From assembly GCA_038883795.1 (NCBI GenBank), contig JAVZLK010000014.1, forward strand, positions 1-35,426: a DNA stretch of 35,426 bases, in the 5' to 3' direction. Source of the stretch: Candidatus Bathyarchaeia archaeon (GTDB taxonomy: Archaea; Thermoproteota; Bathyarchaeia; Bathyarchaeales; Bathycorpusculaceae). The notes beneath the pieces are model-generated. The model did not search any database. It saw nothing but the letters and a program-made list of their open reading frames with translations, and was not told the origin of the DNA. Within the stretch, counting starts at the first letter, position 1. Each line of letters opens with the position of its first letter. Shown piece after piece: positions 2,043-35,141 of the stretch. The translations under genes were made by a program, and so were the position numbers.

Positions 2043-5000
2043 TTAAATAGATGTGGTTAAGAATGCGAATTTTAGCTGGTAAACGCCATTTGCTTCTTCC
2101 GTGTATGCTAAACCGATGATATTGTTGTAGCTTTGGAAAAATCCTGATATCCCGTCATATTGGTAGTAGCCTGCTAAGTTGCTTTCGATTATCCATGGAT
2201 TTGAGCCTTCGACGAAATTCCATGTTGAACCGTTATAAACTTTGTAGTAGATGCAGTTTGCTGTTGGGGCGCCTGCCCAAAAGCAATAGAGTTTGTTTGT
2301 CGCCACATCAATGGTTAGGACGGGGGATGTTTCGCTGGTTACTGCGGGCTGGACTATAGTTTCTGGTCCCCAAGAATTTAAATCATAGCTGTATTTTGTG
2401 TAGACAAGGTCGTGGGTTAAATCTTTTATGAAGACTAGGTGGACGTCGTCGCCTTGATTTACGGCAGATAAACCGCATTCAATAATTCCATCGCTTGTTA
2501 TTGCGCTTCTTGTAGTTTGTTTTTCGCTCCATGAAGAGCCGTTCCATAGGTAAGATTCAATTTGCCATCCACCACATGAGACTATGGCCAGCATTTTTTG
2601 ATTTGTTAATGGCACAATCATAACGTTTATTCCTGTATAGTTGGTTGGGGATAACTGATGTGGAAATCCTGGTGCAGTTATCCATGTTCCGTTAGAGGTT
2701 AAAGATGTTGTTATGAAGGCGTATCGGCTATTTTCAGTAGCGTTTTTTCGAGCGTAAGCCACCCAAGGTCTTCCTTCGCTGTCAATTGCGATTGAAGGCC
2801 ATAGATGTCCCGTATCACTTTCGCCAACAGTGATGTTTTGCTCATCGTCTAACCACGTTATTGTTCCATCGGCATTCGGCAATCCACACCTATAATATAA
2901 CGGGTCGCCGTTTTTCCCTGTGCTAAAAACGTAATGTAAGTGGGTTCCGTTGAAGGCGACGGCGAACCGCCATCCAGCACCGCAAGCTTTGGGTGAAAAT
3001 GGTGTGAAAGGCGTCCATGAGAAACTATCAGTTGAGGTGCTATATCCTGCACTGCTTGCGCCGTTGTAGTAGAATACCCAGAATCTTCCATTAGCGTAAA
3101 AGATTTTTCTTTGGCAAGCATATTCGACAGCTGCATATCCATAAGTTGTCAATGTTGCAATGGTGCTTTGATTCCCTGAAATTGTTAGAATTTGTATTCC
3201 AGTGGATGTCCAATTTCCTGCTGTGTTGTTTGCCCAAATACACCATTGAACCACCGCACCTATTGTGCTATTAAGGATTTTTACTATGGATGCTAGGGCA
3301 AAGGTTTTTCCTTCGCCGAAAGAAAATGTTTCGTTTACCCATACTCCTGTGTTGTTTGTGCCGAAAATATAGTGGCTGAGGTTACTGTTTTCAGCTATAA
3401 ATACTGCACTGAAATTACAAGGCGCTGCAGCTTTTGTAGTGTTTAAACTTATTTCGGAAACTTTTATGGAAGGAATTTGTGCAAGCACCGCCGTTATGGT
3501 TTTGTTTCCGTCTATAATTATAACTGCTGGATTTTGACTTCCAGAAAGATTACCGCTCCACCCTACGAAGGACCAGCCCGAAGCTGGAACCGCTGTTAGT
3601 TCAACAACATCGCCATAATAATATGGCGCTGTCTTGTTAAGGTTAACCGTTCCGCCTTCAGAGGGCGACCAGTTTATTGTTAATGTGTACTCGTTGGGGG
3701 CGAAGAACACTACTATTGTGCGGTTAGCATTTATGGAGTAGAACGTGTACGTGCCTATTGGTCCTTGGGATACGTCGTCAACAACCACATCGTATATGTG
3801 GTAGCCTACTTCTTGCGTGATTGCGAATGTTATGTTTTCGCCATAATAGGCGGTTATTAGGCCGGATGGTTGTATTGTGCCGCCAGTGCCTATTACTGAA
3901 GCATTTATGACGTATTGTTTAGGCGCAAAGTGAACTGTGATAGTCATGTTTTTGGTCATGGTTATTGTTATTGATATTTCATTACTTTCGAAGTCTCCAG
4001 TCCAGCCGACAAACTCGTAGCCTTCATCTGGAAAGGCTGTCAAAGTGACATTTTCACCTTGTTTATAGGCGGCTTTTTCCGGGTTTATGTATACTGATCC
4101 GTTGCCGTCAATTGTTATGGTCAGTAGGTAGGTTTCTTCAAATATCTCTTCTTCTGGTCCTATTGTGTAGAATACTGATGGATTAAGCTGGTTATTATAT
4201 TCTGTTAGTATCCAAACTGCGCTACGTGTAATGTTTGACACCCTAACTTCATCGATGAAGCCATAGAACTTGCGCACATGATCGTAGCGGTCGCCAATAT
4301 ACATGTTTCGGGATGGCCAAATGGGGTTTGAAGCGGGAGTAGAGGCTGGAGATCCGTCATTGACATATAGCTTAGCGGTTGTGCCGTCGAAGGTTGCCAC
4401 GACGTAGTACCATTTGTTAATGGTTATGGATTTGGAAACCATAATGTTGTTGATATATAATTCGATTCTGCTATCGCTGTAGACTTGCAGGAATGCACCC
4501 TGATATGGACTCTGGTATTGAGAAATGAAGTAGCGTGCGCCAGGTTTTGGATAAATCCAAGCGCTGAAAGTGAATTGTATTTCGGTAGTGAAGATCCGTG
4601 GCAGCTGGATGTAGCCGCCGTTGAATTTAACGCAGTTTCCTATGTATCCCATCGTACCTTGGACTAGACTGCCGTATGGTGTACCATTGTTATCGTTTAT
4701 TGTGGAATCGTAGAGTATTTCTGATCCCTCGTTTAAGTGCATTACAAGTTTGTAGTTTGTATCCCATACTCCTGTTGAATTCTGTTGGTTTCCACAGTTT
4801 TGGTTTCCATAGTACATGTAAAGAACAGTGTCCGTTATAGGAGACAAGTATGGTGCTTTAACCCAAACGATTAAGTGTCCCGTTGCACTATCATAAAGCT
4901 CTATTTGATGATCTAGTTTGATGTGGTTCGCATCTGTGAAAACGAAGTCATCTCCGTCTGGCTGTGCCTTTTCAGTGAAGCTGCTGTCAATTATTTCGAT

Positions 5001-5066
5001 TAGCACTGGGAAGTCTGTTAGTTCTCCGCCTACTTTTGTGTGATTTATTGTTATTGTTCTACGGTA
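2043..5066 (-). CDS. C-terminal half of the interrupted giant surface protein: DUF2341-type module, LamG/concanavalin-like domain, three InlB-B/bacterial-repeat Ig-like units, C-terminal beta-propeller-like region
   Basis: The frame of ORF 2043..5006 stays open up to 5069 and reads YRRTITINHTKVGGELTDFPVLIEII. It contains DUF2341 motifs (AQPDGDDFVFTD, LDHQIE, VWVKAP, LYMYYGN) and LamG motifs (FTFSAWI, WYYVVATFDG, GFIDEVRVS). It has no signal peptide of its own. Confidence 0.9.
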   Translation of the reverse strand, partial: YRRTITINHTKVGGELTDFPVLIEIIDSSFTEKAQPDGDDFVFTDANHIKLDHQIELYDSATGHLIVWVKAPYLSPITDTVLYMYYGNQNCGNQQNSTGVWDTNYKLVMHLNEGSEILYDSTINDNNGTPYGSLVQGTMGYIGNCVKFNGGYIQLPRIFTTEIQFTFSAWIYPKPGARYFISQYQSPYQGAFLQVYSDSRIELYINNIMVSKSITINKWYYVVATFDGTTAKLYVNDGSPASTPASNPIWPSRNMYIGDRYDHVRKFYGFIDEVRVSNITRSAVWILTEYNNQLNPSVFYTIGPEEEIFEETYLLTITIDGNGSVYINPEKAAYKQGENVTLTAFPDEGYEFVGWTGDFESNEISITITMTKNMTITVHFAPKQYVINASVIGTGGTIQPSGLITAYYGENITFAITQEVGYHIYDVVVDDVSQGPIGTYTFYSINANRTIVVFFAPNEYTLTINWSPSEGGTVNLNKTAPYYYGDVVELTAVPASGWSFVGWSGNLSGSQNPAVIIIDGNKTITAVLAQIPSIKVSEISLNTTKAAAPCNFSAVFIAENSNLSHYIFGTNNTGVWVNETFSFGEGKTFALASIVKILNSTIGAVVQWCIWANNTAGNWTSTGIQILTISGNQSTIATLTTYGYAAVEYACQRKIFYANGRFWVFYYNGASSAGYSTSTDSFSWTPFTPFSPKACGAGWRFAVAFNGTHLHYVFSTGKNGDPLYYRCGLPNADGTITWLDDEQNITVGESDTGHLWPSIAIDSEGRPWVAYARKNATENSRYAFITTSLTSNGTWITAPGFPHQLSPTNYTGINVMIVPLTNQKMLAIVSCGGWQIESYLWNGSSWSEKQTTRSAITSDGIIECGLSAVNQGDDVHLVFIKDLTHDLVYTKYSYDLNSWGPETIVQPAVTSETSPVLTIDVATNKLYCFWAGAPTANCIYYKVYNGSTWNFVEGSNPWIIESNLAGYYQYDGISGFFQSYNNIIGLAYTEEANGVYQLKFAFLTTSI

Positions 5067-5083
5067 GGTTCACTTAGTAGTTA
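5059..5083. repeat. Left attachment site (attL): core CTACGG(TA) plus arm TAGGTTCACTTAGTAGTTA
   Basis: The core at 5059-5066 is repeated at 9876-9883. Arm 5065-5083 matches the reverse complement of 9857-9875 at 16/19 positions. Confidence 0.88.
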
Positions 5084-5097
5084 GAAAACTATAAATA
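5084..5097 (+). promoter_or_regulatory. Putative archaeal BRE/TATA promoter of the first recombinase
   Basis: GAAAAC-TATAAATA, with the TATA at 5090-5097, ~35 bp upstream of ATG 5133 and immediately inside the left arm. Confidence 0.5.
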
Positions 5098-5132
5098 CGG
5101 ATTCCGACAGAGACTAGGCTAGGTAAGGAAAA

Positions 5133-6440
5133 ATGGAAAACGTAACAAAGTGGTTAATGAAAGTGTCCAATTCAAAGGCTACCGTAAGTAACTATGAATA
5201 TCGCATTAGAAAATTTGCGTCATATATGAAGGAGCATTTCAACATTGACATAGAAACATTGAAGGATGCATATCGAGAAGCTAAGTATAAGGGTGAAATT
5301 GAAAGAGAGAAATTCTTAGATAGGCTACATGATGCGATTGAGGATTATGTTTGTTTCTTTAAGACGCAGGGCTATACCAATATGCACGTTAAAGTTATGG
5401 TTTCGATAATCTCTAGCTACATAAAGAAGGGATGCGGAATAAGAGATATTGACATAGATATACCGAAAAGACCTTTCCCAATATATCATAACCGAGACAT
5501 AACAAAAGAAGAGATTAGAAAAATCCTAGAGCATTGTTCACTTAGAGACCGTGCATTCTTTCTAATGATGGTTGAAAGCGGATTAAGACCTAGCACACTT
5601 CTAGGCTTACGTTATAAGCATATCAAACAAGACTTTGAAAGAAACATTATTCCAATGAAGATAGAGTTACCTTCAGAATTGTTGAAAGACCGCATAAGTG
5701 CAAGATGGAGTTTCATAGGTGAAGACGGCTTTAAAGTATTGAAGGAATATCTTAGCGCACGAAAAGACATAGGTGATAACGATTTCTTATTCTTACCTGA
5801 AAAGCCTAGTAGAGTAAAAGCTGAAGTTCCTAGCGAATCTGCAATGAGCAACAAATTTAACCGAATAGTGTTAAAACTAGGCTTAGACACGCCATTACAT
5901 AAAGGAAAACCCAAAAGCCTAAGGTTGTATAGCTTACGCAAATATTTCTTTAACAATATGAAGTGTGATAGTGCATACCGAAACTATTGGTTCTGTCATA
6001 AAAGCATTGATGACCACTACATAAGTCAAGACGTGCAAAAACATAGAGAAGAGTATGCCAAAGGCTACAAGTTTCTAAGAATTTATGAACCTAGCGATAT
6101 AGATGTGCGTATTGAGGCTTTAACTAGAGAATTAAAGGAAAAACATCAGAGAATACAAGAATTAGAAGAGAAGTTTGAAAGGTTACAACCATTGATAGAC
6201 TTTGTTAATGAATTTTTCAATGAGACGACTCTATCACAGTTTCTTAACGATATAAAGAATGTAGATGTCTTGAGTGTTGAAAAAAAGAATGGTGAAGGAA
6301 TTTCGTTTATGAATTTGAGTCGCCAAACTGTGAAGCTTTTAGCGGAATTTATGAAAAGGCATAACATAAGTGATCCTGACGAAGCATTAAATACCCTCTT
6401 TAGAATGGTAATAGAATCAAAGAAACAACAACAACCTTAA
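5133..6440 (+). CDS. Tyrosine recombinase/integrase 1 (XerC/D-like) with C-terminal coiled coil and RHH-like tail
   Basis: N-terminal SAM-like region (SKATVSNYEYRIRKF). Catalytic motifs are LRDRA...ESGLRPS (Arg), YSLRKYF (YxxR in place of HxxR) and WFCHKSIDDHY (His, Tyr). Confidence 0.9.
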   Translation: MENVTKWLMKVSNSKATVSNYEYRIRKFASYMKEHFNIDIETLKDAYREAKYKGEIEREKFLDRLHDAIEDYVCFFKTQGYTNMHVKVMVSIISSYIKKGCGIRDIDIDIPKRPFPIYHNRDITKEEIRKILEHCSLRDRAFFLMMVESGLRPSTLLGLRYKHIKQDFERNIIPMKIELPSELLKDRISARWSFIGEDGFKVLKEYLSARKDIGDNDFLFLPEKPSRVKAEVPSESAMSNKFNRIVLKLGLDTPLHKGKPKSLRLYSLRKYFFNNMKCDSAYRNYWFCHKSIDDHYISQDVQKHREEYAKGYKFLRIYEPSDIDVRIEALTRELKEKHQRIQELEEKFERLQPLIDFVNEFFNETTLSQFLNDIKNVDVLSVEKKNGEGISFMNLSRQTVKLLAEFMKRHNISDPDEALNTLFRMVIESKKQQQP

Positions 6441-6462
6441 CCTTCTCTTTTTTCTTTTGTTT
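6441..6462 (+). terminator. T-rich archaeal-type terminator candidate
   Basis: CCTTCTCTTTTTTCTTTTGTTT directly follows the integrase 1 stop codon. Confidence 0.4.
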
Positions 6463-6507
6463 CGTAAGAGTTCATACTTAAATATTGAATCTTTCATAAT
6501 AACAATT

Positions 6508-6693
6508 ATGCAATATAGACTAAACAAAAAAAACTTTACTAGACTGCAGAATAAGTTTATGCCTTTCAAATGTTATCGGTGTGGAAGACGGTTTAAAATT
6601 GGCGACTTTATTATATCTAAACGGAATGCAAGGGCGAAACATAGAAAGTTTTATCACTATTCCTGCTTCGAATCTTTATATTTGGAGGCGTAA
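6508..6693 (+). CDS. Small basic Zn-finger protein (CxxC...HxxC)
   Basis: KCYRCGRRF...FYHYSCF. ATG 6508 is a more plausible start than TTG 6457. The stop lies 3 bp before the next ORF. Confidence 0.7.
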   Translation: MQYRLNKKNFTRLQNKFMPFKCYRCGRRFKIGDFIISKRNARAKHRKFYHYSCFESLYLEA

Positions 6694-6696
6694 GAG

Positions 6697-7140
6697 TTGA
6701 GTGAGTTTCAACTTCCAAATTTAACCATAAAAGACAAAATCAACTATCCATACATTTTGGCTAATGCACTTCTAAAGTTTCAAGAGGCTATCATTAAAGC
6801 TGAAGGAGAACTAAGCGAGCAAGAGGTTAGAGAAGCGGCATTATGCCTTTTTAACATGATTCCTAAAACTTGGTATGATGAAAAATTCATAAAAGACGTA
6901 AAAAAGGCTACGTTTAAAGTGAAAGTTGATGTTCGTAAAGAATGGTGTGGTGTAAAGGTTGGACAACCAAAATATGAAAAGGTTGAAGAGATTAACCCTT
7001 ATAGGCTTGTCAATGCTTGCGTGAATCTTTTAGAACGTAGAGAACTTATTTCTAAGAAAGAAAGAATTGAGAAGGTGGAAGGTGTTTACATTGAGCCTGA
7101 CGGAGAGTTTGAAGAGCCTACGGAAGAAGTCAGCACCTAG
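6697..7140 (+). CDS. Hypothetical protein (element-encoded, acidic C-tail)
   Basis: 147-aa ORF with GGAGG ~8 bp upstream of the TTG start; tightly packed in an operon with the Zn-finger and ATPase genes. Confidence 0.75.
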   Translation: MSEFQLPNLTIKDKINYPYILANALLKFQEAIIKAEGELSEQEVREAALCLFNMIPKTWYDEKFIKDVKKATFKVKVDVRKEWCGVKVGQPKYEKVEEINPYRLVNACVNLLERRELISKKERIEKVEGVYIEPDGEFEEPTEEVST

Positions 7141-7144
7141 CTAC

Positions 7145-8053
7145 ATGAATTTTCACGGTTTCAAAGTTTTTAGAGATGCGGATAGAGGATATTCACCTTA
7201 CTTTCAAAGTATGCTAGCCTATCGGATTAAAAGAAAATTGGCAACTAACATAGTTGTTACGGGTGAAGCTGGAATCGGCAAAAGCTATTTGGCTACGGAT
7301 ATCGCTAGAATCATCGAAGGCTTAGACGAGAATGGAAATGATAGGTTTAGCCTAGACCAGGTAGTATTCACTTATGCCGAGTTTATGGATTTGGTTCTAG
7401 AGTTAGAGCATGGAAGACCTATCGTTTTTGATGAGCCTAGTTATGCTATGGGTAAGCGTGAGTGGTATAGGGATTTGAATAAGGTTCTAGTTCAAACCAT
7501 TGAATCTTTTCGGTTTAAAGTGCATCCGTTAATCATTCCAATAATCAATAAGAGCCTTTTAGACAAGACGTTGAGAGAACATTTAATTCAATATCAAGTT
7601 GTGGTTTATGATAGAGGTAAAGCTACGGTTTACCGTGTTAAGCCTTCCCAATTTATTGACCGAGTCTATTATGCCTATTTCTGCAAGCTAGAGTATAGCC
7701 TATTGGATATGCACTTATGCAACCGTGAATCATGCCTAGACTGTAGCCAACTGGCGACTTGTAACATCTTTAGGGCTAGGTATGAACGTAAAAAGGCAAG
7801 CATACAAGACACAAGATACGAGCAGGCAAGAGACCAGGCGGCACAAGTTGAAACTAGGAAGCTAACGGTTTCTCAATTGGAGAACCTAGCTTTATCCATA
7901 AAAGACAAGTTCATTGAAAACGGCAAGCTGTCGGTTCAGAAACTACGAGTAGCAATGATGGACACATACGGAATAAGCCTATCTAATCCTAAGGCATATC
8001 AGTTGAAAGCTAGCCTAGAAATCCACTATGGAAACAAACTATACGAAAGTTAG
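7145..8053 (+). CDS. P-loop NTPase (Zot-like/virus-associated AAA-type) with a Cys cluster
   Basis: Walker A GEAGIGKS, Walker B PIVFDE, and the Cys motif CNRESCLDCSQLATC. ATG 7145 lies 4 bp after the upstream stop and is preferred over the overlapping 7067 start. Confidence 0.85.
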   Translation: MNFHGFKVFRDADRGYSPYFQSMLAYRIKRKLATNIVVTGEAGIGKSYLATDIARIIEGLDENGNDRFSLDQVVFTYAEFMDLVLELEHGRPIVFDEPSYAMGKREWYRDLNKVLVQTIESFRFKVHPLIIPIINKSLLDKTLREHLIQYQVVVYDRGKATVYRVKPSQFIDRVYYAYFCKLEYSLLDMHLCNRESCLDCSQLATCNIFRARYERKKASIQDTRYEQARDQAAQVETRKLTVSQLENLALSIKDKFIENGKLSVQKLRVAMMDTYGISLSNPKAYQLKASLEIHYGNKLYES

Positions 8054-8256
8054 CACTATAATTATCATTTTTCTTTTCACCATCTTTTCATTAAGTTTTA
8101 AACACTAGCTTTTCTAACATTCAAATAGAGAGAAAAGAAGGCTAAACAATAATTATATGTTGAACTTGTCTGTTTAATTAATCATAATAGTTATAAGTTA
8201 GAAGGGGCATTTTTCTTCTGGATTGAGTTAGAAATCTAGGCAAAGGTGAGAGTATA

Positions 8257-9750
8257 GTGAGCTTAGAAAGGTTCTTAGAGAAAGAGAACGTTCAACCTTC
8301 CATAGAAAAGAAAACTCAAGTCGGCTTTGTTGATGATTGGCTTAACAAAAACTTCCGAGTTGAAAAAACAAAAAGGGATTATGTTTTAGCAATTCAACTT
8401 TTCGTAAAGGCTATCTATGGTAATGATGCTACTGATTACAATGGCTTTATTTCGAGATACTTTAAGGAACAAAGAAACTTTCTAGAAGACTTAAAGACAT
8501 TCATTCAATATATGAATAGAGAAGGATATGCACCTCGTTCTATTCATACGCTAACAATCGTAATTAAGAAGTTCTTTTCAAGACATGGGCATAAGATTTC
8601 TGATGATGACTGGGAAGATATTAGCCGAGGTTTACTACCACCTAATGTAGCGGCTACACAAGACGAGATTCTAACAAAAGACCAATGCAAAATGTTGTTA
8701 CCTCACTTCTCGGTTCTAGGCAAAGCAATATTCCTTTTCCTATTAAACACTGGTGCAAGGATAGGTGAAACATTGAAACTTAGAGTGGATGACTTCAATT
8801 TGGAGACGGATCCGCCTAGCGTGTATATTCGCCCACAATATACTAAGGGCGGTGTTGGTGGGCGTGTTATGTGGTTTAGCTATGAGGCGAAAGAGGCTCT
8901 TATAGAATGGTGGAAAGTTAAGGATACAAAAAAGAAACGTGGTAGAGCTGGTAAATTTCCGAAAGAAATGGCTTTTGGCATCAAACCAATTGGTTTTAAT
9001 CTGATGTTAAATATGGCATTACGCAAAGCTGGTTTAGCGAAAAGAGACCCTTCAACAAAAACCAAATTCTACATCTATCATGTTCATACTTTGCGGAAGT
9101 TCTTTTCTACGGCTATGAGTGAAGCTGGAGTTCCAGAATCTATCATTCACGCATGGATGGGACATAAAGGCTACCTGGATAGTGCATACAAGCGTTACAC
9201 GAAAGAAAAGCTGGCTCAAATCTATAAGGAACACATGGATGCGGTTACAATTCAGGGCGGAGTTTCAAAGCACATTCTAGAAGAGCTTAAAATGTTAAGG
9301 CAAAAAAACGAAGAGATAGAGACGCTTAAGAAACTATGTGAAGAGAAAGGAATCAAAAATGGAAGACCTTTAGTTGAGATGTTTAAGGATTTGGCTCTAG
9401 TATTGGCTAAAGAACTTAGTGAAGTTTCTAAGCCTATTCAACCACAACCGATTAAGCCAATTCCACAAGAAACATCACAACCTACTAAAAGTGAGGCAGT
9501 TAGGCCTACCCAAGTAGTTGAAAATGTGCCTATCCCTGAAAAGCCTAAGGAATTGGAAAAGCCAAAAGTTGATTCTACACCTAAAACTTATACACAGTTG
9601 ATTAAAGAAGGAAAATGCCTTAGACAATTGGATTTAAAGGATGCGAAACAATGGGAAATAGCTTGCCATTGGTGTTTCAACAATTACCGTTACACTTATG
9701 ACCAGTGTAGGGCTACGGTTAAAGTGCAAGTAGCAGAGAAAACAATTTAA
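8257..9750 (+). CDS. Tyrosine recombinase/integrase 2 with Pro-rich linker and C-terminal Cys cluster
   Basis: Catalytic set is NTGARIGE (Arg), TKGG (Lys), HTLRKFF (HxxR) and WMGHKGYLDSAY (His, Tyr). RBS GGTGA lies upstream of the GTG start. The C-tail has KPIQPQPIKPIP then C...ACHWC...C. Confidence 0.93.
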   Translation: MSLERFLEKENVQPSIEKKTQVGFVDDWLNKNFRVEKTKRDYVLAIQLFVKAIYGNDATDYNGFISRYFKEQRNFLEDLKTFIQYMNREGYAPRSIHTLTIVIKKFFSRHGHKISDDDWEDISRGLLPPNVAATQDEILTKDQCKMLLPHFSVLGKAIFLFLLNTGARIGETLKLRVDDFNLETDPPSVYIRPQYTKGGVGGRVMWFSYEAKEALIEWWKVKDTKKKRGRAGKFPKEMAFGIKPIGFNLMLNMALRKAGLAKRDPSTKTKFYIYHVHTLRKFFSTAMSEAGVPESIIHAWMGHKGYLDSAYKRYTKEKLAQIYKEHMDAVTIQGGVSKHILEELKMLRQKNEEIETLKKLCEEKGIKNGRPLVEMFKDLALVLAKELSEVSKPIQPQPIKPIPQETSQPTKSEAVRPTQVVENVPIPEKPKELEKPKVDSTPKTYTQLIKEGKCLRQLDLKDAKQWEIACHWCFNNYRYTYDQCRATVKVQVAEKTI

Positions 9751-9856
9751 TGCCTTTTGCTAAGTGTTCTATTGAGGCTATGAAGACATCGAGGTAATAT
9801 GAAGGGGACAAGATGATTTGTTTTTCCGCTTCTGAGCCTCTTTAAAGCTGATACAT

Positions 9857-9883
9857 TAACTACTAACTTAATCTACTACGGTA
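9857..9883. repeat. Right attachment site (attR): arm TAACTACTAACTTAATCTA plus core CTACGGTA
   Basis: Inverted partner of arm 5065-5083. It contains the TAG stop (9863-9865, minus strand) that ends the upstream host ORF. Confidence 0.88.
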
Positions 9884-12800
9884 CTTCCAAGAGATGTTCC
9901 ACCAGTCTGCTGGAATTTCCACGAAGACAGCTGTAATATTTTTGTTTCCGTCGATGATTATGGTGATCGTCTCGTTTGTTCCGGACAGGTCGCCACTCCA
10001 GTGAGAAAATGTCCAACCATTCTCAGCGATGGCTGTTAACTCCACCACGGTGCCATAAGTGTATGTTGGCAGATCTGGATTCTTTGTCACTGAACCGCTT
10101 CCTTCCGGAGAAACGTTCACTGTTAAAGTGTAATTGTTTGGAGCGAAGAACGCTGTTATGGTATGGTTTGCGCATACAGCGTAGAATGTATATGAGGATA
10201 TTGATCCTCGGGATTCGCCGTCCACTAATACTTCAAGAATATGACAGCCTATGTTAGGCGTAATTGTGAAAGTTATGTTTTCGCCATGATATGCTGTTAC
10301 TGGGCCAGAGGGTTCTATAGTTCCACCAGTACTGCCTACCAACGCAGCAATAATGTATTGTTTGAGATTGAAGTGTGCCGTTACAGTCATGTTGCCAGTA
10401 ATTATGAAGGTTATAGGATTATCTAAACTTGAAATGTTCCCGCTCCAGTGGCTGAAACTCCAGCCAATATAAGCGGATGCGTTCAATTGAACTGGGGTTC
10501 CATAAGTGTATGTTGGCTGTTCTGGCGATTTAATTACATTTCCTGAGCCTTCAACATTTATGGTCAGAACATATTGTTCTTGGGTGAAGTTAGCATAAAC
10601 TGTTTTATTGTTATCCATTAGAATTATTGTAGGATTCTCGCTGCCTGAAATGTCTCCGCTCCACCAAACAAATTTCCAGCCCGCGTCTGGTACAGCTGTT
10701 AATGTTACGTTTTCGCCGTGAGCGTAGAATGCAAAGTCCGGGTTTTTGTTTACCGTACCATTGCCGATTATGATAATGGTTAATGTGTATGGGTTTTGCG
10801 TAAAAATTGCTGTTACGGATTCGTTGCTATTCATCATAATCGTTATTGGATTCTCACTACTTGAGGTATCACCGCTCCAACCAGCAAACATCCAGCCGGG
10901 ATAAGCAGTGGCTGATAGTGTTACGTTTTCACCATAAGTGTACGTTAGTTTGTTTGGTTCGATTGTCACGTTGCCGTTTCCAAGAATGGTTATTGTTAAG
11001 ATGTAGTGGTCTTGTGTGAATACCGCTGTCACCGTTTTGTTATCATCAATTATTATGGTTGTTGGGTTTTGGCTGCCATTTAAATCCCCCTCCCAATGGG
11101 AGAATGACCATCCAGCATTTGGAACAGCAGTCAATTCAACTACGTCGCCATAATGGTATGGGACTGTTTTGTTAAAGTTAACGTAGCCACCGTCTATTGG
11201 TGATATGTTTATCGACAGTGTGTATTCGGTTTTGTTAAAGACGGCAACTACGGTTTTGTTCCCATTCATTAGTATAGTTGTTGGGTTTTTGTTGCCTGTT
11301 AAGTCGCCATCCCAATGTGAAAATGCATAGCCAATGTCTGCTATTGCAGTCAACTGGACAAGTGTGCCGTAGGGATAAGTTTCATTGTCAGGGTTTTTGG
11401 TGACTGAACCGTTTCCAACCGTTGATATGGTTAAGGTCACATTTCCCTGGCTTGGTGGAACTTCTTCTGTTGTAAACGTGAAGGTTTTTGTATTTGTGTT
11501 GGTTCCATCCGTGGCTGTTACTGTCCAAGTGTAGGTTGTTGAGTAGGCTAAGCTGTTGACTGGAACCGTAATTATTCCATTAGGTACGTTTATACCGCTA
11601 GCTGATACTATGTTTGGGTTAGTTGTGACTGTGTAATTTATCGGGTCGCTTTGGTAATCTGTCAATTTAAAGCTCAAGTACGGAAGAGTCACCGAAACGT
11701 TTGTTAAGCCATCATTAGGCGAGATTTCAGATATTCTTGGCTCTTGTGGTCCTGGTGGAGGCCTATAAACTGGTACGCTTCCCCTGTATTGGTGGTAGTG
11801 GGTAAGCCCGGATTTTGGTAGCGGGTTTGGTGCAGACACTTCTACGTCATAGACGCTAATCCAACTATTATGCTGATTGAAGACTAGTTCAAGCTTGCCG
11901 TCGGCGTCTATGTCTTGAACTATGAAAAACGCATGGACCATGGGCAGGTTTATGGTTCCTATGATATCATAATTTTTTGTGACGGAATTATATTTGAAGA
12001 TGGTTACGTTATTTACGTTGCAGTCTAATATCTCCCATTTTCCATCTCCATCCACATCAGCTAATCCAGGAGGATGTAGACATGGAAACGGAAGCGTAGC
12101 ATCCAATTTCCAGTTAACCAAATCCCATATCTTGGGCTGCTTTCGATCACGAGCCGTTATCAATTCAAGGTTGCCGTCGCCATCCACGTCAGCAACGGTT
12201 GGAGGATCATGCGCTGGCAAACCAAGGTTCAGTTTCTTCCGATATATGCCCTTATACGTGTTAACACTTCCGTCCGTGTTAATAACTGCGATGCCACCAC
12301 TTGTAGTACCTTGGTTAAGTATGATTATTTCAAGATCTCCATCATTATCCACGTCTGCAATTGTAGGAGCTTGACTGCTACACAGTATGTCAGGGTAGGC
12401 CCATATTTCAGTTAGATTATCTGCCCAAAAAGCTCTAAGCCCCCTTCCACCAGAGGGATACGATGGATACGATTCGCTTCTTTCACCTAAATAAACTTCA
12501 AATACTCCGTCAAAATCAGTGTCCGCTAAACTCATTCCACCATAACACGTATAATAAGTATAGGTGGAGGCAAATATCTGACCATCATAAGTTAGAGCGG
12601 TAACCCGGCTTGGATAAGCAGAAAAGATTTCAGGATATCCGTCAGCGTTAATATCGCCCACAGCTATGTACGTACCTTTTCCAGCAGCTTTTGTATTATA
12701 CCACCAAATAGAACCGTTGATTCCGTGTAGAACCATTACTCCGTTGCTGGTAGTTCCGTTGACATATTGGGGGGCCATCACTATTTCCAGAAAGCCATCT

Positions 12801-13141
12801 TTGTTTAAGTCTACTATCTCCATAGGAACATGATCACCACCATATGGTACTGACCATATAACTTCGCCTGTTTCGGGATCTAGTGCTGCTGTCTTCCCGG
12901 TTAACCCGGATATCACTATTTCCATATCGCCGTCGTTGTTTAAATCAGCTGCCAACGGACCCATCCACGTACTGCCGGTGCCGGCATTAGCTTTCCATTT
13001 TAACGTTATCGAAAGTGTGTTTTGTTGTCCAAACACGTGGGTAACATCTATAAAGCTAACAAAGCCTTGAATAACTAGAATGATCAAAATTATGCTTAAC
13101 AATTTTTTATGTAAGTTCAATCGGTACCTTTCTCCAACCAT
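9863..13141 (-). CDS. N-terminal half of the interrupted giant secreted surface protein: signal peptide, FG-GAP/VCBS-type beta-propeller, Ig-like domain, seven InlB-B/bacterial-repeat units
   Basis: Hydrophobic N-terminus (KKLLSIILIILVIQGFVSF), repeated Ca-binding DxNxDGxxEI motifs, and YTLTI...G.V.K.P...Y.YG..V.LTA....GW.F..W.GD repeats. The last four residues (SRLS*) derive from the element end. Confidence 0.92.
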   Translation of the reverse strand: MVGERYRLNLHKKLLSIILIILVIQGFVSFIDVTHVFGQQNTLSITLKWKANAGTGSTWMGPLAADLNNDGDMEIVISGLTGKTAALDPETGEVIWSVPYGGDHVPMEIVDLNKDGFLEIVMAPQYVNGTTSNGVMVLHGINGSIWWYNTKAAGKGTYIAVGDINADGYPEIFSAYPSRVTALTYDGQIFASTYTYYTCYGGMSLADTDFDGVFEVYLGERSESYPSYPSGGRGLRAFWADNLTEIWAYPDILCSSQAPTIADVDNDGDLEIIILNQGTTSGGIAVINTDGSVNTYKGIYRKKLNLGLPAHDPPTVADVDGDGNLELITARDRKQPKIWDLVNWKLDATLPFPCLHPPGLADVDGDGKWEILDCNVNNVTIFKYNSVTKNYDIIGTINLPMVHAFFIVQDIDADGKLELVFNQHNSWISVYDVEVSAPNPLPKSGLTHYHQYRGSVPVYRPPPGPQEPRISEISPNDGLTNVSVTLPYLSFKLTDYQSDPINYTVTTNPNIVSASGINVPNGIITVPVNSLAYSTTYTWTVTATDGTNTNTKTFTFTTEEVPPSQGNVTLTISTVGNGSVTKNPDNETYPYGTLVQLTAIADIGYAFSHWDGDLTGNKNPTTILMNGNKTVVAVFNKTEYTLSINISPIDGGYVNFNKTVPYHYGDVVELTAVPNAGWSFSHWEGDLNGSQNPTTIIIDDNKTVTAVFTQDHYILTITILGNGNVTIEPNKLTYTYGENVTLSATAYPGWMFAGWSGDTSSSENPITIMMNSNESVTAIFTQNPYTLTIIIIGNGTVNKNPDFAFYAHGENVTLTAVPDAGWKFVWWSGDISGSENPTIILMDNNKTVYANFTQEQYVLTINVEGSGNVIKSPEQPTYTYGTPVQLNASAYIGWSFSHWSGNISSLDNPITFIITGNMTVTAHFNLKQYIIAALVGSTGGTIEPSGPVTAYHGENITFTITPNIGCHILEVLVDGESRGSISSYTFYAVCANHTITAFFAPNNYTLTVNVSPEGSGSVTKNPDLPTYTYGTVVELTAIAENGWTFSHWSGDLSGTNETITIIIDGNKNITAVFVEIPADWWNISWKYRSRLS

Positions 13142-13260
13142 TAAATGTTAAAGCTTGCAGTTAAATGTTTAGGATTATTTACCTATAAGATTTTCAAGCC
13201 GCTTCGCCTGAACTGCTATCTCTGCTACTGTGGTGTGTGTGGCTTCTTGGTCCATATATG

Positions 13261-14385
13261 TCATTCCATTAATTGCTTGTAAATTGAGCATAGTTTATTG
13301 CAAGCGTTTTCCAATGAGTATTGCTCTTTAACGAGTTTTCGCCCATCACGAGCCATTTTTAACCTAACATCCTCGTTTTTAAGCAAATAATCTATAGCTT
13401 CTGCCAGCTGGATGGAATTGCCTGGCGGAATTAAAATCCCAGTCTCATGGTTTTTGATTATTTCTGGAGCACCGCCAACAGGAGTCGCTATTACGGAGGT
13501 TTCACAGGATAGAGCTTCTAGAATTGTCACGGGGAAGCCTTCAGCGAATGATGGGAGAATGAGAAGTGAAGCCTTTTGATACCATTCTATTATTTCGCTT
13601 TGTTCCATGGCGCCCAAATATTTTATTTCGTGTTTTCCTTTCTTGTTTTCATTTTTAATTAGATTTAACAAGCTTTGATAGTAGTTGGCATTCCAGCCCG
13701 GCGGCCCAATTATGACCAAGTGCACACTTTCTTTCAAATATTTTAGAGCTCTTATTAGTATGTGTAAGCCTTTAAGTTCTGAGATTCTGCCAACGTACAG
13801 AAGCAAATTTTTCTCTTTATGGTTTCCTGGTTTGAAGAAGTTTGTGTCTATGCTGTTTGGCACGTAAGTGATTTTGCTTTCTGGGATTCCAAGGGCTATT
13901 AACTCTTTTGTCATCTGGTTTGATAGGGAGACGTATATGTTAGCTAAATGTTTTAGCAGGAATCTGCTTACGTGATGTTTTTTTAGGAAGTTGGATTTTA
14001 TTCCATGCAGGTGGATTATTTTTGGTTTTTTTATGAAGTATGAGAAGAATGGGAAGCTTAGTTCAAACTCGTGAAAGTGTATAATATCATAGTTTTTTAA
14101 TATGTTAGTGAATCTTCCTGGTATGAAGTTGACTCCTGCTGTAATTTTGTATGAATGTAGTTTCCATAGCCAATTTAACGCTGGGATTCTGAACACTGAG
14201 ATTCCGTCGATTTTTTCTGTTTTTCCATGCCATTTTGGTTTTCTATTTTGATCCACGTTGAATGTCATTATGTCTGTTTGTATGCCGTTTTTGTTAAGGG
14301 TTATGGCAAGGTTTCTAACTATTGTTTCTGTGCCGCCTTTAACCGGATAGTAACAAGGAGTAACCATTAAAACGTGCATAGGCAT
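13261..14385 (-). CDS. Glycosyltransferase family 4 (GT-B)
   Basis: YYPVKGGTE N-terminus, LYVGRISELKG, and PSFAEGFPVTILEALSC (EX7E). Confidence 0.93.
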   Translation of the reverse strand: MPMHVLMVTPCYYPVKGGTETIVRNLAITLNKNGIQTDIMTFNVDQNRKPKWHGKTEKIDGISVFRIPALNWLWKLHSYKITAGVNFIPGRFTNILKNYDIIHFHEFELSFPFFSYFIKKPKIIHLHGIKSNFLKKHHVSRFLLKHLANIYVSLSNQMTKELIALGIPESKITYVPNSIDTNFFKPGNHKEKNLLLYVGRISELKGLHILIRALKYLKESVHLVIIGPPGWNANYYQSLLNLIKNENKKGKHEIKYLGAMEQSEIIEWYQKASLLILPSFAEGFPVTILEALSCETSVIATPVGGAPEIIKNHETGILIPPGNSIQLAEAIDYLLKNEDVRLKMARDGRKLVKEQYSLENACNKLCSIYKQLME

Positions 14386-14396
14386 CCTTTAAGCGA

Positions 14397-15344
14397 TTAT
14401 TGAAGTGTTTCATAGAAAAATGTATGAAAGTGGTTTTTGATGAATTTTGGATGGTAATTGAAGCGGTTTACAGCCCATCTGATGCTTGTTTGGTAGGAGT
14501 TGTTTATTTTTTCTTTGGTTATTGTTAGTTTTTTGTATGGGGTGTTGAGGGTGATGCTGGTGTCTATTATTTTGGCTTTCTGTAAAGTTTTTATTCTTTT
14601 TATCAAGAGTTCGAGTTTTTGGAATAGGCGTTCTATTTCTTCTGCTGGTCTTTTGGGGACTGTTGAGAGGGTTTTCGGGTTTCCTTTATAATATATGGAG
14701 TCCCATTCGATTTTGTTCACGAGTAATGTTGGATGTAGGTCGAAAATTGTTATTTTATGTCGTAGTATTGAGGAGAGGAGACATTTGTAGTTGTATGTTG
14801 TACCGTTCCATTGCTGTGTTACTGTATATGGGTAGAAGGTTAATTTCTTATAGGAAACTGGTTCTGAGTTTGTGAGGTTTGCGGAGAAATCGTATTTTAT
14901 GCCGAGACTTTTTAAGGCTTCAAGGTGTGGCGGTGTCCAACACATGCCCGGCGCTCGAAAGGCCTCTATTTTTTTGGGATGAAATAGTTTTTGAAGGAAG
15001 TATATTCCGCCTTCTCCCTCTATTTTTCCTGTTAACGGGTTTATATGGGAAGTTTCCCTTTCCGCTGCGATTTCGCAAGCTTTTTCGTAGCTTTTTAGGT
15101 CGGTGTATTCTGGGATTGTTGGGCGAACCGAATGGTTGGAAGAATGAAAGCCAATTTCGTGGCTTTTAAGCATCTCAACAATTTGTGGGTAACTACTTAT
15201 TTTTTCAGCCATAAGCCCTGTAATAAAGAATATAGCCTTCAACTTATATTTTTGTAAGATTTTAAGGATTCTTTGAAGCGCAGAAGTAGCGTTTGGGTTT
15301 ATGAAATCTTCAACATCAAATGTTAATAACAACTTTTGTTTCAT
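14397..15344 (-). CDS. Polysaccharide deacetylase family protein (NodB/CE4-like)
   Basis: LLTFDVED, HEIGFHSSNH and FRAPG motifs. Confidence 0.85.
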   Translation of the reverse strand: MKQKLLLTFDVEDFINPNATSALQRILKILQKYKLKAIFFITGLMAEKISSYPQIVEMLKSHEIGFHSSNHSVRPTIPEYTDLKSYEKACEIAAERETSHINPLTGKIEGEGGIYFLQKLFHPKKIEAFRAPGMCWTPPHLEALKSLGIKYDFSANLTNSEPVSYKKLTFYPYTVTQQWNGTTYNYKCLLSSILRHKITIFDLHPTLLVNKIEWDSIYYKGNPKTLSTVPKRPAEEIERLFQKLELLIKRIKTLQKAKIIDTSITLNTPYKKLTITKEKINNSYQTSIRWAVNRFNYHPKFIKNHFHTFFYETLQ

Positions 15345-16507
15345 TGTTTGTTTCCTTTCTGGCTTAAAAAGGGTAATTTTTCTAAGGTTTCATCTATTTT
15401 AGCCTGTTTTACTGCTTTAATTCCCCAGTTATAGAGTCTAGAAGTAAGCTTGCCGTTGATAAATCTGATGCTGAGATTTCTCTTATACTCTCTAGTCCAT
15501 TTAGATTTATAAGGTTCATCACCTTTCATAAAATCAAATTCCTTTAATTTTTTCATAATGCATTGTTCTATTACTTTTAAGGTTAATAGATTCCCGATGC
15601 TGTATCGAGAATAGTTAAGGTTAAAACCACTTAATGCAAAATATAATTTTCCTCCGTATTCAAAGCAGTAATGAGCCGCTACGGGTTCATCGTTAGCCGT
15701 GAGAAAATACAATGCAAGCCATCCGTTTATATCAAAGCTTTTGGCTACGTTGATGTAGAAATCACGGATAATCTGTGTGCTAAGAACTCCCGGCATCTGT
15801 CTAAATTTCCACCTTTTTTGATGCAGCTTGAAAAAAATTTCCATAGCGTCTTCAACCGAACCAAAGTCGTTATGGCTATTTAATTCAATTTTACCGTAAT
15901 CTTTCTGTAAGTTTTTCATACATCTCCTTAGATTTTTCCGAAACTTACCGTCTAATCCTTCTAAAAACATGTCCATAGATGCTGGTAAGGTTATGTAAGG
16001 ACACATTGCACCCCTTTTTATTTCAAATTTTGGAGTAGACATTATTATTTTTCCAAGTAGACTTAAAACTGATGATGTTTCTGGAACATCGTATAAGTAT
16101 ATGAAATCCCAGTCATTTTGTTTTGTTAAATAGTTCAAGAATAGTTTAAAACATTCTTCTTCTTTTTCTCCTAATAATAAACCTGTGTAGTCTCCACCTT
16201 CTGGCATCAGACCCCTATACCCTAAAGGTTCTATAACATCATAACCAAATGAACCCACAATGCCGAAATGGGATTGCCTAAGCGGAGCAATAGCAACAAT
16301 CTCATCTTCATCTTTCACGCACAATATCCTCAGCTTTGCTCTCCTCCCGAAATATCGCCAAAAGGTTGACAAATACTCCCAAGTTAAGAAGATATTATTG
16401 TCCTTACTTTTAGCAAGAACTTCATTCCATTTCTGTTTTAATTCTAGAAATTCGTTTAAGGTGCTAATTTCAAATATTTTTAACAAACTGTTCACTTCAT
16501 TTGACAT
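15341..16507 (-). CDS. GNAT-family acyltransferase (CelD/BcsL-like)
   Basis: NIFLTWEYL, GKFRKNLRR, LHQKRW, YSIGNLL and FDFMKGDEPYKSKW motifs. Confidence 0.88.
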   Translation of the reverse strand: MSNEVNSLLKIFEISTLNEFLELKQKWNEVLAKSKDNNIFLTWEYLSTFWRYFGRRAKLRILCVKDEDEIVAIAPLRQSHFGIVGSFGYDVIEPLGYRGLMPEGGDYTGLLLGEKEEECFKLFLNYLTKQNDWDFIYLYDVPETSSVLSLLGKIIMSTPKFEIKRGAMCPYITLPASMDMFLEGLDGKFRKNLRRCMKNLQKDYGKIELNSHNDFGSVEDAMEIFFKLHQKRWKFRQMPGVLSTQIIRDFYINVAKSFDINGWLALYFLTANDEPVAAHYCFEYGGKLYFALSGFNLNYSRYSIGNLLTLKVIEQCIMKKLKEFDFMKGDEPYKSKWTREYKRNLSIRFINGKLTSRLYNWGIKAVKQAKIDETLEKLPFLSQKGNKQ

Positions 16508-34492: not shown

Positions 34493-34900
34493 TTATGGCT
34501 CAATCCGCTTTAGCCCTTCAACTTCCTCAAAATCCTTGTCATAACTAACAATATCCCCTATATTATTTTCTAAAGCCGCTGCAGCGTGAATTGCATCTCT
34601 AGGTTTAATTTTATATTTTTCCATAATCTCCTGCGCTTTAAAAACTGTGCTTTTCTTAACTCCCAAAAGTTTCAAGTTTGGAAAGGCCAGAAACTTCTTG
34701 CTTTCCTCCGCAGAAGGTTCGAAACCAAAAATCTTGCGGATAATCCATGCAATTTCATCCCACGTGATTGTTGCTGTACAAGCTTCAACGGTTCCTTGAG
34801 CAATTTTGAGAAGGAAATCTTTAGACTTCTTCGCTTCAATTATAACTTCAGAATCATATATGATGGGGTATAGAAACACGTTCGAATCAATGTAAAGCAA
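34493..34900 (-). CDS. vapC: PIN-domain VapC toxin
   Basis: LYIDSNVFLY, TWDEI, PRDAIHAA and SYDKDF. TTG 34900 is preferred as the start; it overlaps the antitoxin stop. Confidence 0.9.
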   Translation of the reverse strand: MLYIDSNVFLYPIIYDSEVIIEAKKSKDFLLKIAQGTVEACTATITWDEIAWIIRKIFGFEPSAEESKKFLAFPNLKLLGVKKSTVFKAQEIMEKYKIKPRDAIHAAAALENNIGDIVSYDKDFEEVEGLKRIEP

Positions 34901-35141
34901 ATCTTTCTTCAGCCTCCTGCTCCAACAACCCTTCCAAATCAATTTTTTTGGTCAACTTCTTCCCAGCCACTCGACAGAAACTTTCCACAAAATCTTTAGG
35001 GTCTACGCCTGAACGGATCACCACTTCTTTCTCTCTAACTTCCATAACAACCTCGTCGCCAGGCATTATACCAACATACTCTCTTATATCTTTTGGAATC
35101 ACTATCTGCCCCTTCTGCCCAATTCTCCTCCTAATTCTCAT
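34887..35141 (-). CDS. AbrB/MazE/SpoVT-family antitoxin
   Basis: RRIGQKGQIVIPKDIREYVGIMPGDEV signature; starts at ATG 35141, directly upstream of the PIN gene. Confidence 0.9.
   Translation of the reverse strand: MRIRRRIGQKGQIVIPKDIREYVGIMPGDEVVMEVREKEVVIRSGVDPKDFVESFCRVAGKKLTKKIDLEGLLEQEAEERFALH

Follow-up and report, generated by a model that had tools for sequence, protein, structure and literature searches.

A 4.8-kb mobile element inside a surface-protein gene of a Bathyarchaeia archaeon seems to have strayed from its usual address. We consider it fairly likely that the tyrosine recombinase int1 of a guide-RNA-targeting element made a secondary-site insertion of the kind performed by the integrase IntDOT, which was then followed by spacer capture. 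The occupied DUF2341 site is most likely such a secondary site and shares only GG|TAC with the usual target, because relatives of the element target the RNA gene, the element carries a copy of this RNA, and the host's own copy is empty. The stretch of DNA analyzed (35,426 nucleotides; hereafter, the window) corresponds to contig C14 in a genome of 2.18 Mb. Named matches to its genes indicate Bathyarchaeia, and the single sequencing run containing it is a hot-spring metagenome.

The element spans positions 5059–9875 (4,817 bp) and is bounded by an 8-bp direct repeat, CTACGGTA, at 5059–5066 and 9876–9883, with no third copy within the window. When the 4,817 bp between the repeats were excised, a minus-strand ORF of 2,093 amino acids with a single stop at its end was obtained. 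This restored ORF reads WWNISWKYRRTITINHTK through the joint and contains FG-GAP, Flg_new_2, DUF2341, and LamG domains. The features around the junctions are as follows.

2043..5058, minus strand: interrupted giant surface-protein gene, 3' part (DUF2341, LamG, and Flg_new_2 repeats)
5059..5064, plus strand: left-junction spacer CTACGG, 6 bp, host-derived, within the YRR codons of the W..W.YRR.ITI motif
5065..5083, plus strand: left element arm, putative core-type recombinase site, kept in the relative L022
9857..9875, plus strand: right element arm, giving the TAG (9863–9865, minus strand) that closes the truncated host ORF
9876..9881, plus strand: right-junction spacer CTACGG, 6 bp, followed by host TAC
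9882..13141, minus strand: interrupted host gene, 5' part (FG-GAP and Flg_new_2 repeats)

The spacer CTACGG can be recognized as host sequence because it encodes the conserved YRR. With the element ends rejoined, the two arms (9857–9875 and 5065–5083) form an inverted repeat that matches at 16 of 19 positions around the 6-bp CTACGG, and the rejoined host site (attB) is asymmetric (7/19). A 4-bp spacer on the identical axis gives an equal arm score; the size of 6 bp comes from the direct repeats of the window element and of the relative L132, which overlap by exactly 6 bp. The rejoined element ends, the 16/19 arms, the CTACGG spacer, and the asymmetric attB reported in a first-pass annotation of this DNA are thereby confirmed, as are its assignment of the arms and spacer to the core geometry of tyrosine recombinases and its remark that the right arm supplies the stop codon of the truncated host ORF (9863–13141). 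Among 884,361 pairs of identical 8-mers located 1–20 kb apart across the genome, which served as the pool for the chance estimate, eight pairs at four places, including that of the window, reached 16/19; the ends of the window element had been set independently of arm symmetry, by the restoration of the ORF. The three other places with such arms around direct repeats are C1 246618/264224, C5 5392/6425, and C49 4528/6060; the repeats at C49 are longer, and this place might represent a small element.

The 10-mer TTAGTAGTTA by itself is at chance level in the window (three matches with one mismatch versus 3.47 expected), and the arm motifs had only chance-level matches elsewhere in the same genome, where the element is single-copy. 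A DNA search of 40 relatives found neither the element nor an empty orthologous gene. Contigs of run X1, possibly the source sample, extend across both junctions at an even depth of 20.6 and 21.3; no circle or empty-site joint occurred among these contigs, a form of data from which rare forms drop out. Elsewhere in the window, a long glycosylation cluster (13261–34276) adjoins the interrupted gene and encodes glycosyltransferases, Gfo/Idh/MocA oxidoreductases, a polysaccharide deacetylase, and DUF2206, and PIN-domain genes are located at 971–1309 and 34493–34942.

All genes of the element are on the plus strand, in the order int1, 78-aa cysteine ORF, orf147, P-loop ATPase, and int2.

5088..5096, plus strand: TATA-like box ahead of int1, kept in L022, putative promoter
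5133..6440, plus strand: int1, 435-aa tyrosine recombinase
6457..6693, plus strand: 78-aa ORF with CxxC and H/C residues, zinc-ribbon-like by eye, with a weak PHROG match only
6697..7140, plus strand: orf147, of no known family
7067..8053, plus strand: P-loop ATPase, with a likely start near 7145
8257..9750, plus strand: int2, 497-aa second tyrosine recombinase with a full catalytic set

Both recombinases matched PF00589 (int1, 45.7 bits; int2, 55.3 bits; cut-off, 27.1). In int1, the residues R152, K185, R269, H289, and Y296, with Y266 in place of the first H, were invariant in 42 aligned sequences, and in int2, R168, K197, H277, R280, H303, and Y311 were invariant across 41 aligned homologues; we take these to be the catalytic residues from the known motif. 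Identification of either protein as XerA was rejected (NF040815, 52 and 70 bits versus a cut-off of 220), and a PDB sequence search with int1 matched only the XerA of entry 4a8e. A suicidal integrase of the SSV/pTN3 type was likewise rejected, as int1 and int2 are whole ORFs and attL is located 68 bp ahead of int1. The repeats of the element offered no obvious internal candidate site for int2.

The ATPase has 435 homologues, which orf147 partners in 41 of the 49 loci having enough upstream DNA. In 29 of 40 loci, most of them lacking int1, the gene behind the ATPase encodes a tyrosine recombinase, whose type varies. For the ATPase model, the nearest named fold was ATV ORF286 (E 2.7e-7, TM 0.49), with a match to phrog_5484 as well; a PDB sequence search gave nothing significant, and the PDB fold matches were generic P-loop structures. 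The viral_contigs set contained no relatives of the ATPase or int1, and an Atlas search with orf147 returned nothing usable. It appears to be int1, and not int2, that belongs with the element ends and would act on them, because L022 has nearly the same arms but an unrelated second recombinase, L132 and L138 lack a second recombinase, and the int2 homologue in L016 is accompanied by other arms. Judging from these gene neighborhoods, int2 occupies an exchangeable slot behind the ATPase, apparently untied to the ends of the window element.

The orf147/ATPase pair is also carried by large contigs that are viral-looking by layout only. Four loci (L047, L050, L055, and L062) and approximately 20 long metagenome loci seem to be large elements of a common layout, with big reverse-strand genes, ORFs of around 250 and 210 amino acids, orf147, the ATPase, and a short tyrosine recombinase; that of L042 additionally has a helicase. 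Among the neighboring genes tested, no PHROG match was found apart from integrases and a helicase. These large elements are possibly an undescribed virus group and the helper of the small elements. Two contigs (L040 and L078) have two tandem ATPase modules each, perhaps tandem elements.

To characterize the target, we examined 26 int1-family loci, in nine of which, including the window, both ends were mapped (17 of 26 unmapped). A class-wide search with the int1 alignment (3 of 396) contributed no further locus. Because direct repeats guided the end search, it would have missed elements with unequal spacers; the spacer calls of L016, L127, L133, and L139 rest on the symmetry center. All nine mapped elements had a symmetric attP (13–16 of 22), an asymmetric attB (4–9 of 22), and an identical 6-mer spacer at both junctions; the predicted intermediate, with unlike spacers at its two ends, was absent from this set. 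A symmetric attP with an asymmetric attB is therefore the norm for the int1 family, and the window is ordinary in this respect.

The closest mapped relative, L022, encodes an int1 with 78% identity to that of the window, has near-identical arms, and is flanked on both sides by TCGAGG inside the guide-RNA gene. In a quick tree (P0122–P0171, every third protein up to P0240, and the 26 loci, cut at 400 amino acids), L022 and the window formed one int1 clade with a support of 98; the proteins P0122–P0137 are 59–82% identical to int1. L132 and L138 (int1 40% and 37% identical) have TCGAGG at the identical guide-RNA site, and L126, which is nearer to the window clade than these two, has the spacer TGCTTA, without GG, approximately 50 bp before a tRNA-Ala gene. 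Further spacers were CTTATG (L127 and L133), ATTCTA (L016), and ATATTA (L139). Among close relatives, junctions were readable only in L022, and the clade thus offers two readable spacers, CTACGG and TCGAGG, whose sites have only GG|TAC in common. The earlier suggestion that target recognition needs little homology is supported.

Several of these loci have features of their own. One int1 subclade returns to a single intergenic promoter-like site with the spacer CTTATG, upstream of a divergently read gene; both ends were found in L127 and L133 and the left end in L026, L078, L128, L129, L134, L135, and L137 (spacer variant TTTATG), so right ends are known in only two of nine loci. The L126 element (6483–16261 in G634; 9.8 kb) has a primase-like gene, a distant ATPase, and a second recombinase, and its insertion site is TATA-like. 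L138 (G375) carries within the element, at 2918–5731, what looks by eye like a tungstate/molybdate ABC transporter, and its right end has three tandem spacer-RNA units of 110 bp each.

TCGAGG lies within a conserved gene for a C/D-box-type guide RNA. A two-guide pattern describing it was found in 121 of 401 genomes of the order and in 118 of 247 genomes of the host's own family, and a reversed-pattern control matched three genomes. We read 122 of the 124 pattern matches, the other two being the window copy and L132: 114 had a C box and a promoter-like stretch upstream, three were chance-like, and five were second halves behind an arm. The C, D', C', and D boxes and the terminal stem of archaeal C/D-box sRNAs are present, and a C directly follows TCGAGGTA in all 114 C-box copies. 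Of 111 copies scored, 106 have a paired stem, with compensated changes (GGAC/GTCC in 103, GGGC/GCCC in 2, and TGAC/GTCA in 1); variants of the D' box are common. The folding energy was unremarkable (z −1.19), Rfam gave four weak C/D matches, all below the gathering score (best E 0.092), and the host copy (L265) had no Rfam match at the gathering score.

Guide 1 pairs with the 23S rRNA of the relative G006 over 10 nt in the host copy and 12 nt in the element copy, the latter length being reached in 1 of 2,000 shuffles. Under the +5 rule, the methylation target lies opposite the fifth base before the box. From this pairing, guide 1 is predicted to direct 2'-O-methylation at 23S C2498, the first C of CCUCGAU. 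In the accessible text of PMC3488215, C2498 (E. coli numbering) opens the motif CXUCGAU. Guide 2 has no perfect 10-mer in the 23S or 16S rRNA, and its best 10-bp pairing requires one G-U.

Because the crossover lies in guide 1, insertion splits the guide RNA. Occupied sites are rare: a strict left-junction pattern gave nine matches in 332 genomes, of which two were real (G375 and G413) and the other seven, without a nearby int1 match, were taken as chance. Six genomes (G317, G609, G594, G612, G617, and G543) have a tandem arrangement of RNA, arm, spacer, and 3' half but no element body, with arms resembling the L132/L138 type; loss of the body between the left spacer and the internal RNA copy would leave such an arrangement. 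In the viral_contigs set, none of the 90 RNA-pattern matches had C and D boxes together. Five further loci (L189, L193, L194, L195, and L201, in G341, G016, G629, G285, and G015) have a foreign RNA 5' end with a promoter resembling the L132 arm, and no int1 was found upstream in the fetched DNA, apart from a weak integrase match in G341. Copies with an ACCAAAA..TTGAAAT-type promoter were considered as element-borne and rejected, as no int1, int2, or ATPase lay upstream in seven regions and two of family f6.

The window element carries a complete copy of this RNA, which lies 16 bp inside the right arm and was overlooked in the first-pass annotation.

9738..9752, plus strand: BRE/TATA-like stretch approximately 22 nt before the RNA copy, putative by comparison with host copies
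9774..9840, plus strand: complete element-borne copy of the C/D-box-type guide RNA
9774–9778 and 9836–9840: terminal stem of the copy
~9778–9783: C box
9785–9796: guide 1
9799–9802: D' box
~9811–9816: C' box
9817–9831: guide 2
9832–9835: D box

The host's own RNA gene (C7:39545–39588) is intact and empty. The element copy is closest to copies of another family (G253 and G150), and the host copy ranks only 93rd of 114. At window position 9797, the element copy has an A (TAA, not TAC, after the guide core), whereas 114 of 114 chromosomal copies have a C; this A removes GGTAC, which might stop the element from recombining with its own RNA copy. L138 also carries RNA copies, and L132 rebuilds the 5' end of the RNA with a C box in its arm. 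In L022, only a few bases of the 3' stem and no replacement RNA are visible; replacement is thus not obligatory. The element copy would presumably replace a guide RNA split by insertion.

The ends of sister elements in metagenome contigs are compatible with the same target. The runs X2 (another study) and X3 are only small shares and were used for contig ends, not for habitat. Record 22 of X3 is identical to the window over 9812–9875 (64 bases) and then enters a different flank, record 15 of X2 ends at 9875, and record 9 of X2 starts at 5063, i.e., at GG. The X2 contig over int1 has 38 differences in 986 bases, and this sister also has the 3' end of int2. Judged from contig ends alone, the break points in X2 and X3 fit TCGAGG, not CTACGG.

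We propose the following course of events. int1 would bind the two symmetric arms and recombine them, across the 6-bp spacer, with an asymmetric host site. For the int1 clade, the usual target appears to be guide 1 of the C/D-box RNA, as shown for L022; insertion there would split the guide RNA, and the element would supply a full copy, presumably as a replacement. At the DUF2341 site, the first strand exchange could proceed on the 2-bp GG homology and the second across four mismatches, which after replication would leave one old and one new spacer. Since one event leaves such an unequal pair, target spacers at both ends require a second step. Excision would give a mismatched circle, segregation or repair would convert it to CTACGG, and the CTACGG circle would re-enter the restored site with full homology. 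The reconstructed attP thus seems target-derived at both ends; the attP of the first-pass annotation, which missed the host origin of CTACGG, would be a reprogrammed one, preserving a natural case of target switching through spacer capture. A bolder version, which we regard as doubtful, holds that int1 reads almost only its own arms and GG|TA and leaves the target 6-mer at both junctions, so that every stray insertion reprograms the address, that the home of the element is the guide RNA, replaced by a foreign copy, and that the element thereby controls the methylation of the host peptidyl transferase center.

Some of the evidence also fits a low-specificity transposon, in which int1 inserts at many NNNNGG|TAC sites with a 6-bp duplication in one step and the RNA is a hot spot: both spacers equal the target in all nine mapped elements, near-identical ends adjoin different spacers, and GGTAC occurs 872 times in the host genome. 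This is nevertheless unlikely, as three of the four other mapped GG-ending or RNA-context elements, from two separate clades, share the exact base of the RNA gene, six genomes have arm-plus-RNA scars at the guide-RNA site, the element is single-copy in its own genome, and a single fixed site is likewise reused by the CTTATG subfamily. Moreover, conservative tyrosine recombinase chemistry produces no target duplication in a single step. An old, fixed change of specificity, by which int1 of the window lineage has come to prefer the CTACGG site, leaving the RNA copy as a relic, would agree with the variation of int1-family targets over evolutionary time (TCGAGG, TGCTTA, CTTATG, ATTCTA, and ATATTA), with the 22% of residues at which the window int1 differs from that of L022, and with the loss of the C after the guide core. 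We consider it improbable, given that the X2 contig, so similar in int1, comes with ends that stop at the spacer, that the right end in X3 is followed by another flank after 64 identical bases, and that the RNA copy keeps its boxes, stem, and 12-nt guide; both halves of the host gene also remain open frames, which points to a recent insertion.

Slightly less probable still is that int2, alone or paired with int1 in the manner of XerC/D, made the insertion. Although its catalytic residues are invariant in the 41 aligned homologues and the X2 sister also has its 3' end, L022 combines the same arms with an unrelated second recombinase, L016 has an int2 homologue with other arms, L132 and L138 have none, and the recombinase slot behind the ATPase is mostly filled without int1. 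The least probable reading is that offered in the first-pass annotation, in which conserved YR(R/K) codons of DUF2341 surface-protein paralogs serve as the target. In its favor, the insertion in the window falls inside that motif, and the paralog on C22, the other full DUF2341 motif of the genome, matches the spacer at four of six bases, which could now bring such sites within reach of a CTACGG circle. However, none of the eight other mapped elements is in a DUF2341 context, as far as their flanks were read, and three, the closest relative included, are in the C/D-box guide RNA gene with TCGAGG. The element carries an RNA copy, C22 is empty with its frame open over 820 amino acids, and, in X1, a paralog contig diverges from the window at 5060 with no element arm. 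The tabulation of insertion sites suggested in that annotation yielded unrelated loci and variable spacers, the pattern that it had itself set against paralog targeting.

Secondary-site insertion with spacer capture has partial precedents. Integrases of the Tn916 type use an overlap like that of IntDOT, and their attL and attR spacers differ after insertion at a non-matching site. The comparisons below draw on the accessible portions of the papers cited. IntDOT of CTnDOT integrates with a dinucleotide conserved at one end of its overlap and mismatches elsewhere in it (PMC2817482); the window element appears to resemble it in the dinucleotide kept at one end and the variable other bases, seen in two spacers of the clade, and resembles it in the imperfect inverted arms. 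Unlike IntDOT and Tn916, it has a 6-bp spacer, the same target-derived spacer at both junctions, no conjugation genes, and a strong return to one RNA site, and its tolerance of heterology is putative. In lambdoid phages, secondary sites are a route to new specificity (Rutkai et al. 2006, cited in PMC8371274), and secondary-site insertion similarly changes the overlap sequence carried by the element, whereas no arm-type sites, Xis, or IHF are shown for the window element. The archaeal review PMC8371274 describes target change in tyrosine integrases as unresolved and, in the portion available, gives SSV1 alone as a case of relaxed specificity in archaea, with two mismatches, versus four of six here.

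A parallel in lifestyle is the tRNA-dependent lysogeny of Fionnbharth-type actinobacteriophages, in which a tyrosine integrase uses a core of approximately 10 bp within a host RNA gene, the gene is not rebuilt, a replacement is brought along, and secondary sites, which retain little of the core, are found in protein genes (PMC10865867). The present case differs in its RNA, a C/D-box methylation guide, in its archaeal host, in the size of the elements, which are 4–10 kb and lack capsid genes, and in the absence of a copy from L022. The cryptic integrated elements of Thaumarchaeota are also small, with a tyrosine integrase and att repeats down to 8 bp, and insert into tRNA and protein genes as well as intergenic DNA (PMC6563490); the portion of that paper available describes no sRNA or snoRNA target or replacement RNA for them. 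Core geometry of this kind and 8-bp att repeats are already known (PMC8371274 and PMC6563490). In the available text of both papers, sRNA and snoRNA targets are not mentioned, and the portion of the Bathyarchaeia virus paper PMC10541130 consulted gives no attachment sites. Within the open literature, as opposed to subscription journals and supplements, we did not find guide-RNA targeting in print, and the att tables of PMC6563490 could list such sites as intergenic.

The dif/lox-like label that the first-pass annotation gave to the attP holds for its shape, inverted arms around a short asymmetric spacer as in dif/XerA and loxP/Cre, but not for the arm length, the asymmetric partner, or the type of recombinase. 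The loxP site of Cre has perfect 13-bp arms, an 8-bp spacer, and identical partner sites, whereas here 10 of the inner 13 arm bases match, the spacer is 6 bp, and the partner is asymmetric. The dif site has 11-nt arms and a 6-nt spacer (PMC8371274, in part); in contrast, arms in the window family are 19–22 bp with the perfect part outside, the partner is asymmetric, and the recombinases score below the XerA cut-off. In terms of how the element spreads, a life as a virus satellite is a lead, because its tandem of a small ORF and an ATPase recalls ORF154/ORF288 of pSSVx, a satellite of fuselloviruses in which these are putative packaging components (PMC1635272, in part). Both systems have a tandem of an ORF of approximately 150 amino acids and an ATPase of approximately 300 amino acids in common with larger virus-like genomes; the window element differs from pSSVx in lacking a Rep gene, and orf147 is likened to ORF154 by layout.

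If these readings hold, near-identical arms with two natural targets, the guide RNA (TCGAGG) and a protein gene (CTACGG), provide substrates with which spacer capture can be tested using one thermophile enzyme. With a C/D-box RNA as attB and its replacement carried by the element, tRNA-dependent lysogeny would gain a counterpart for guide RNAs, and the foreign copy in the window element is a case of mobile DNA taking guide RNAs from one host family to another.
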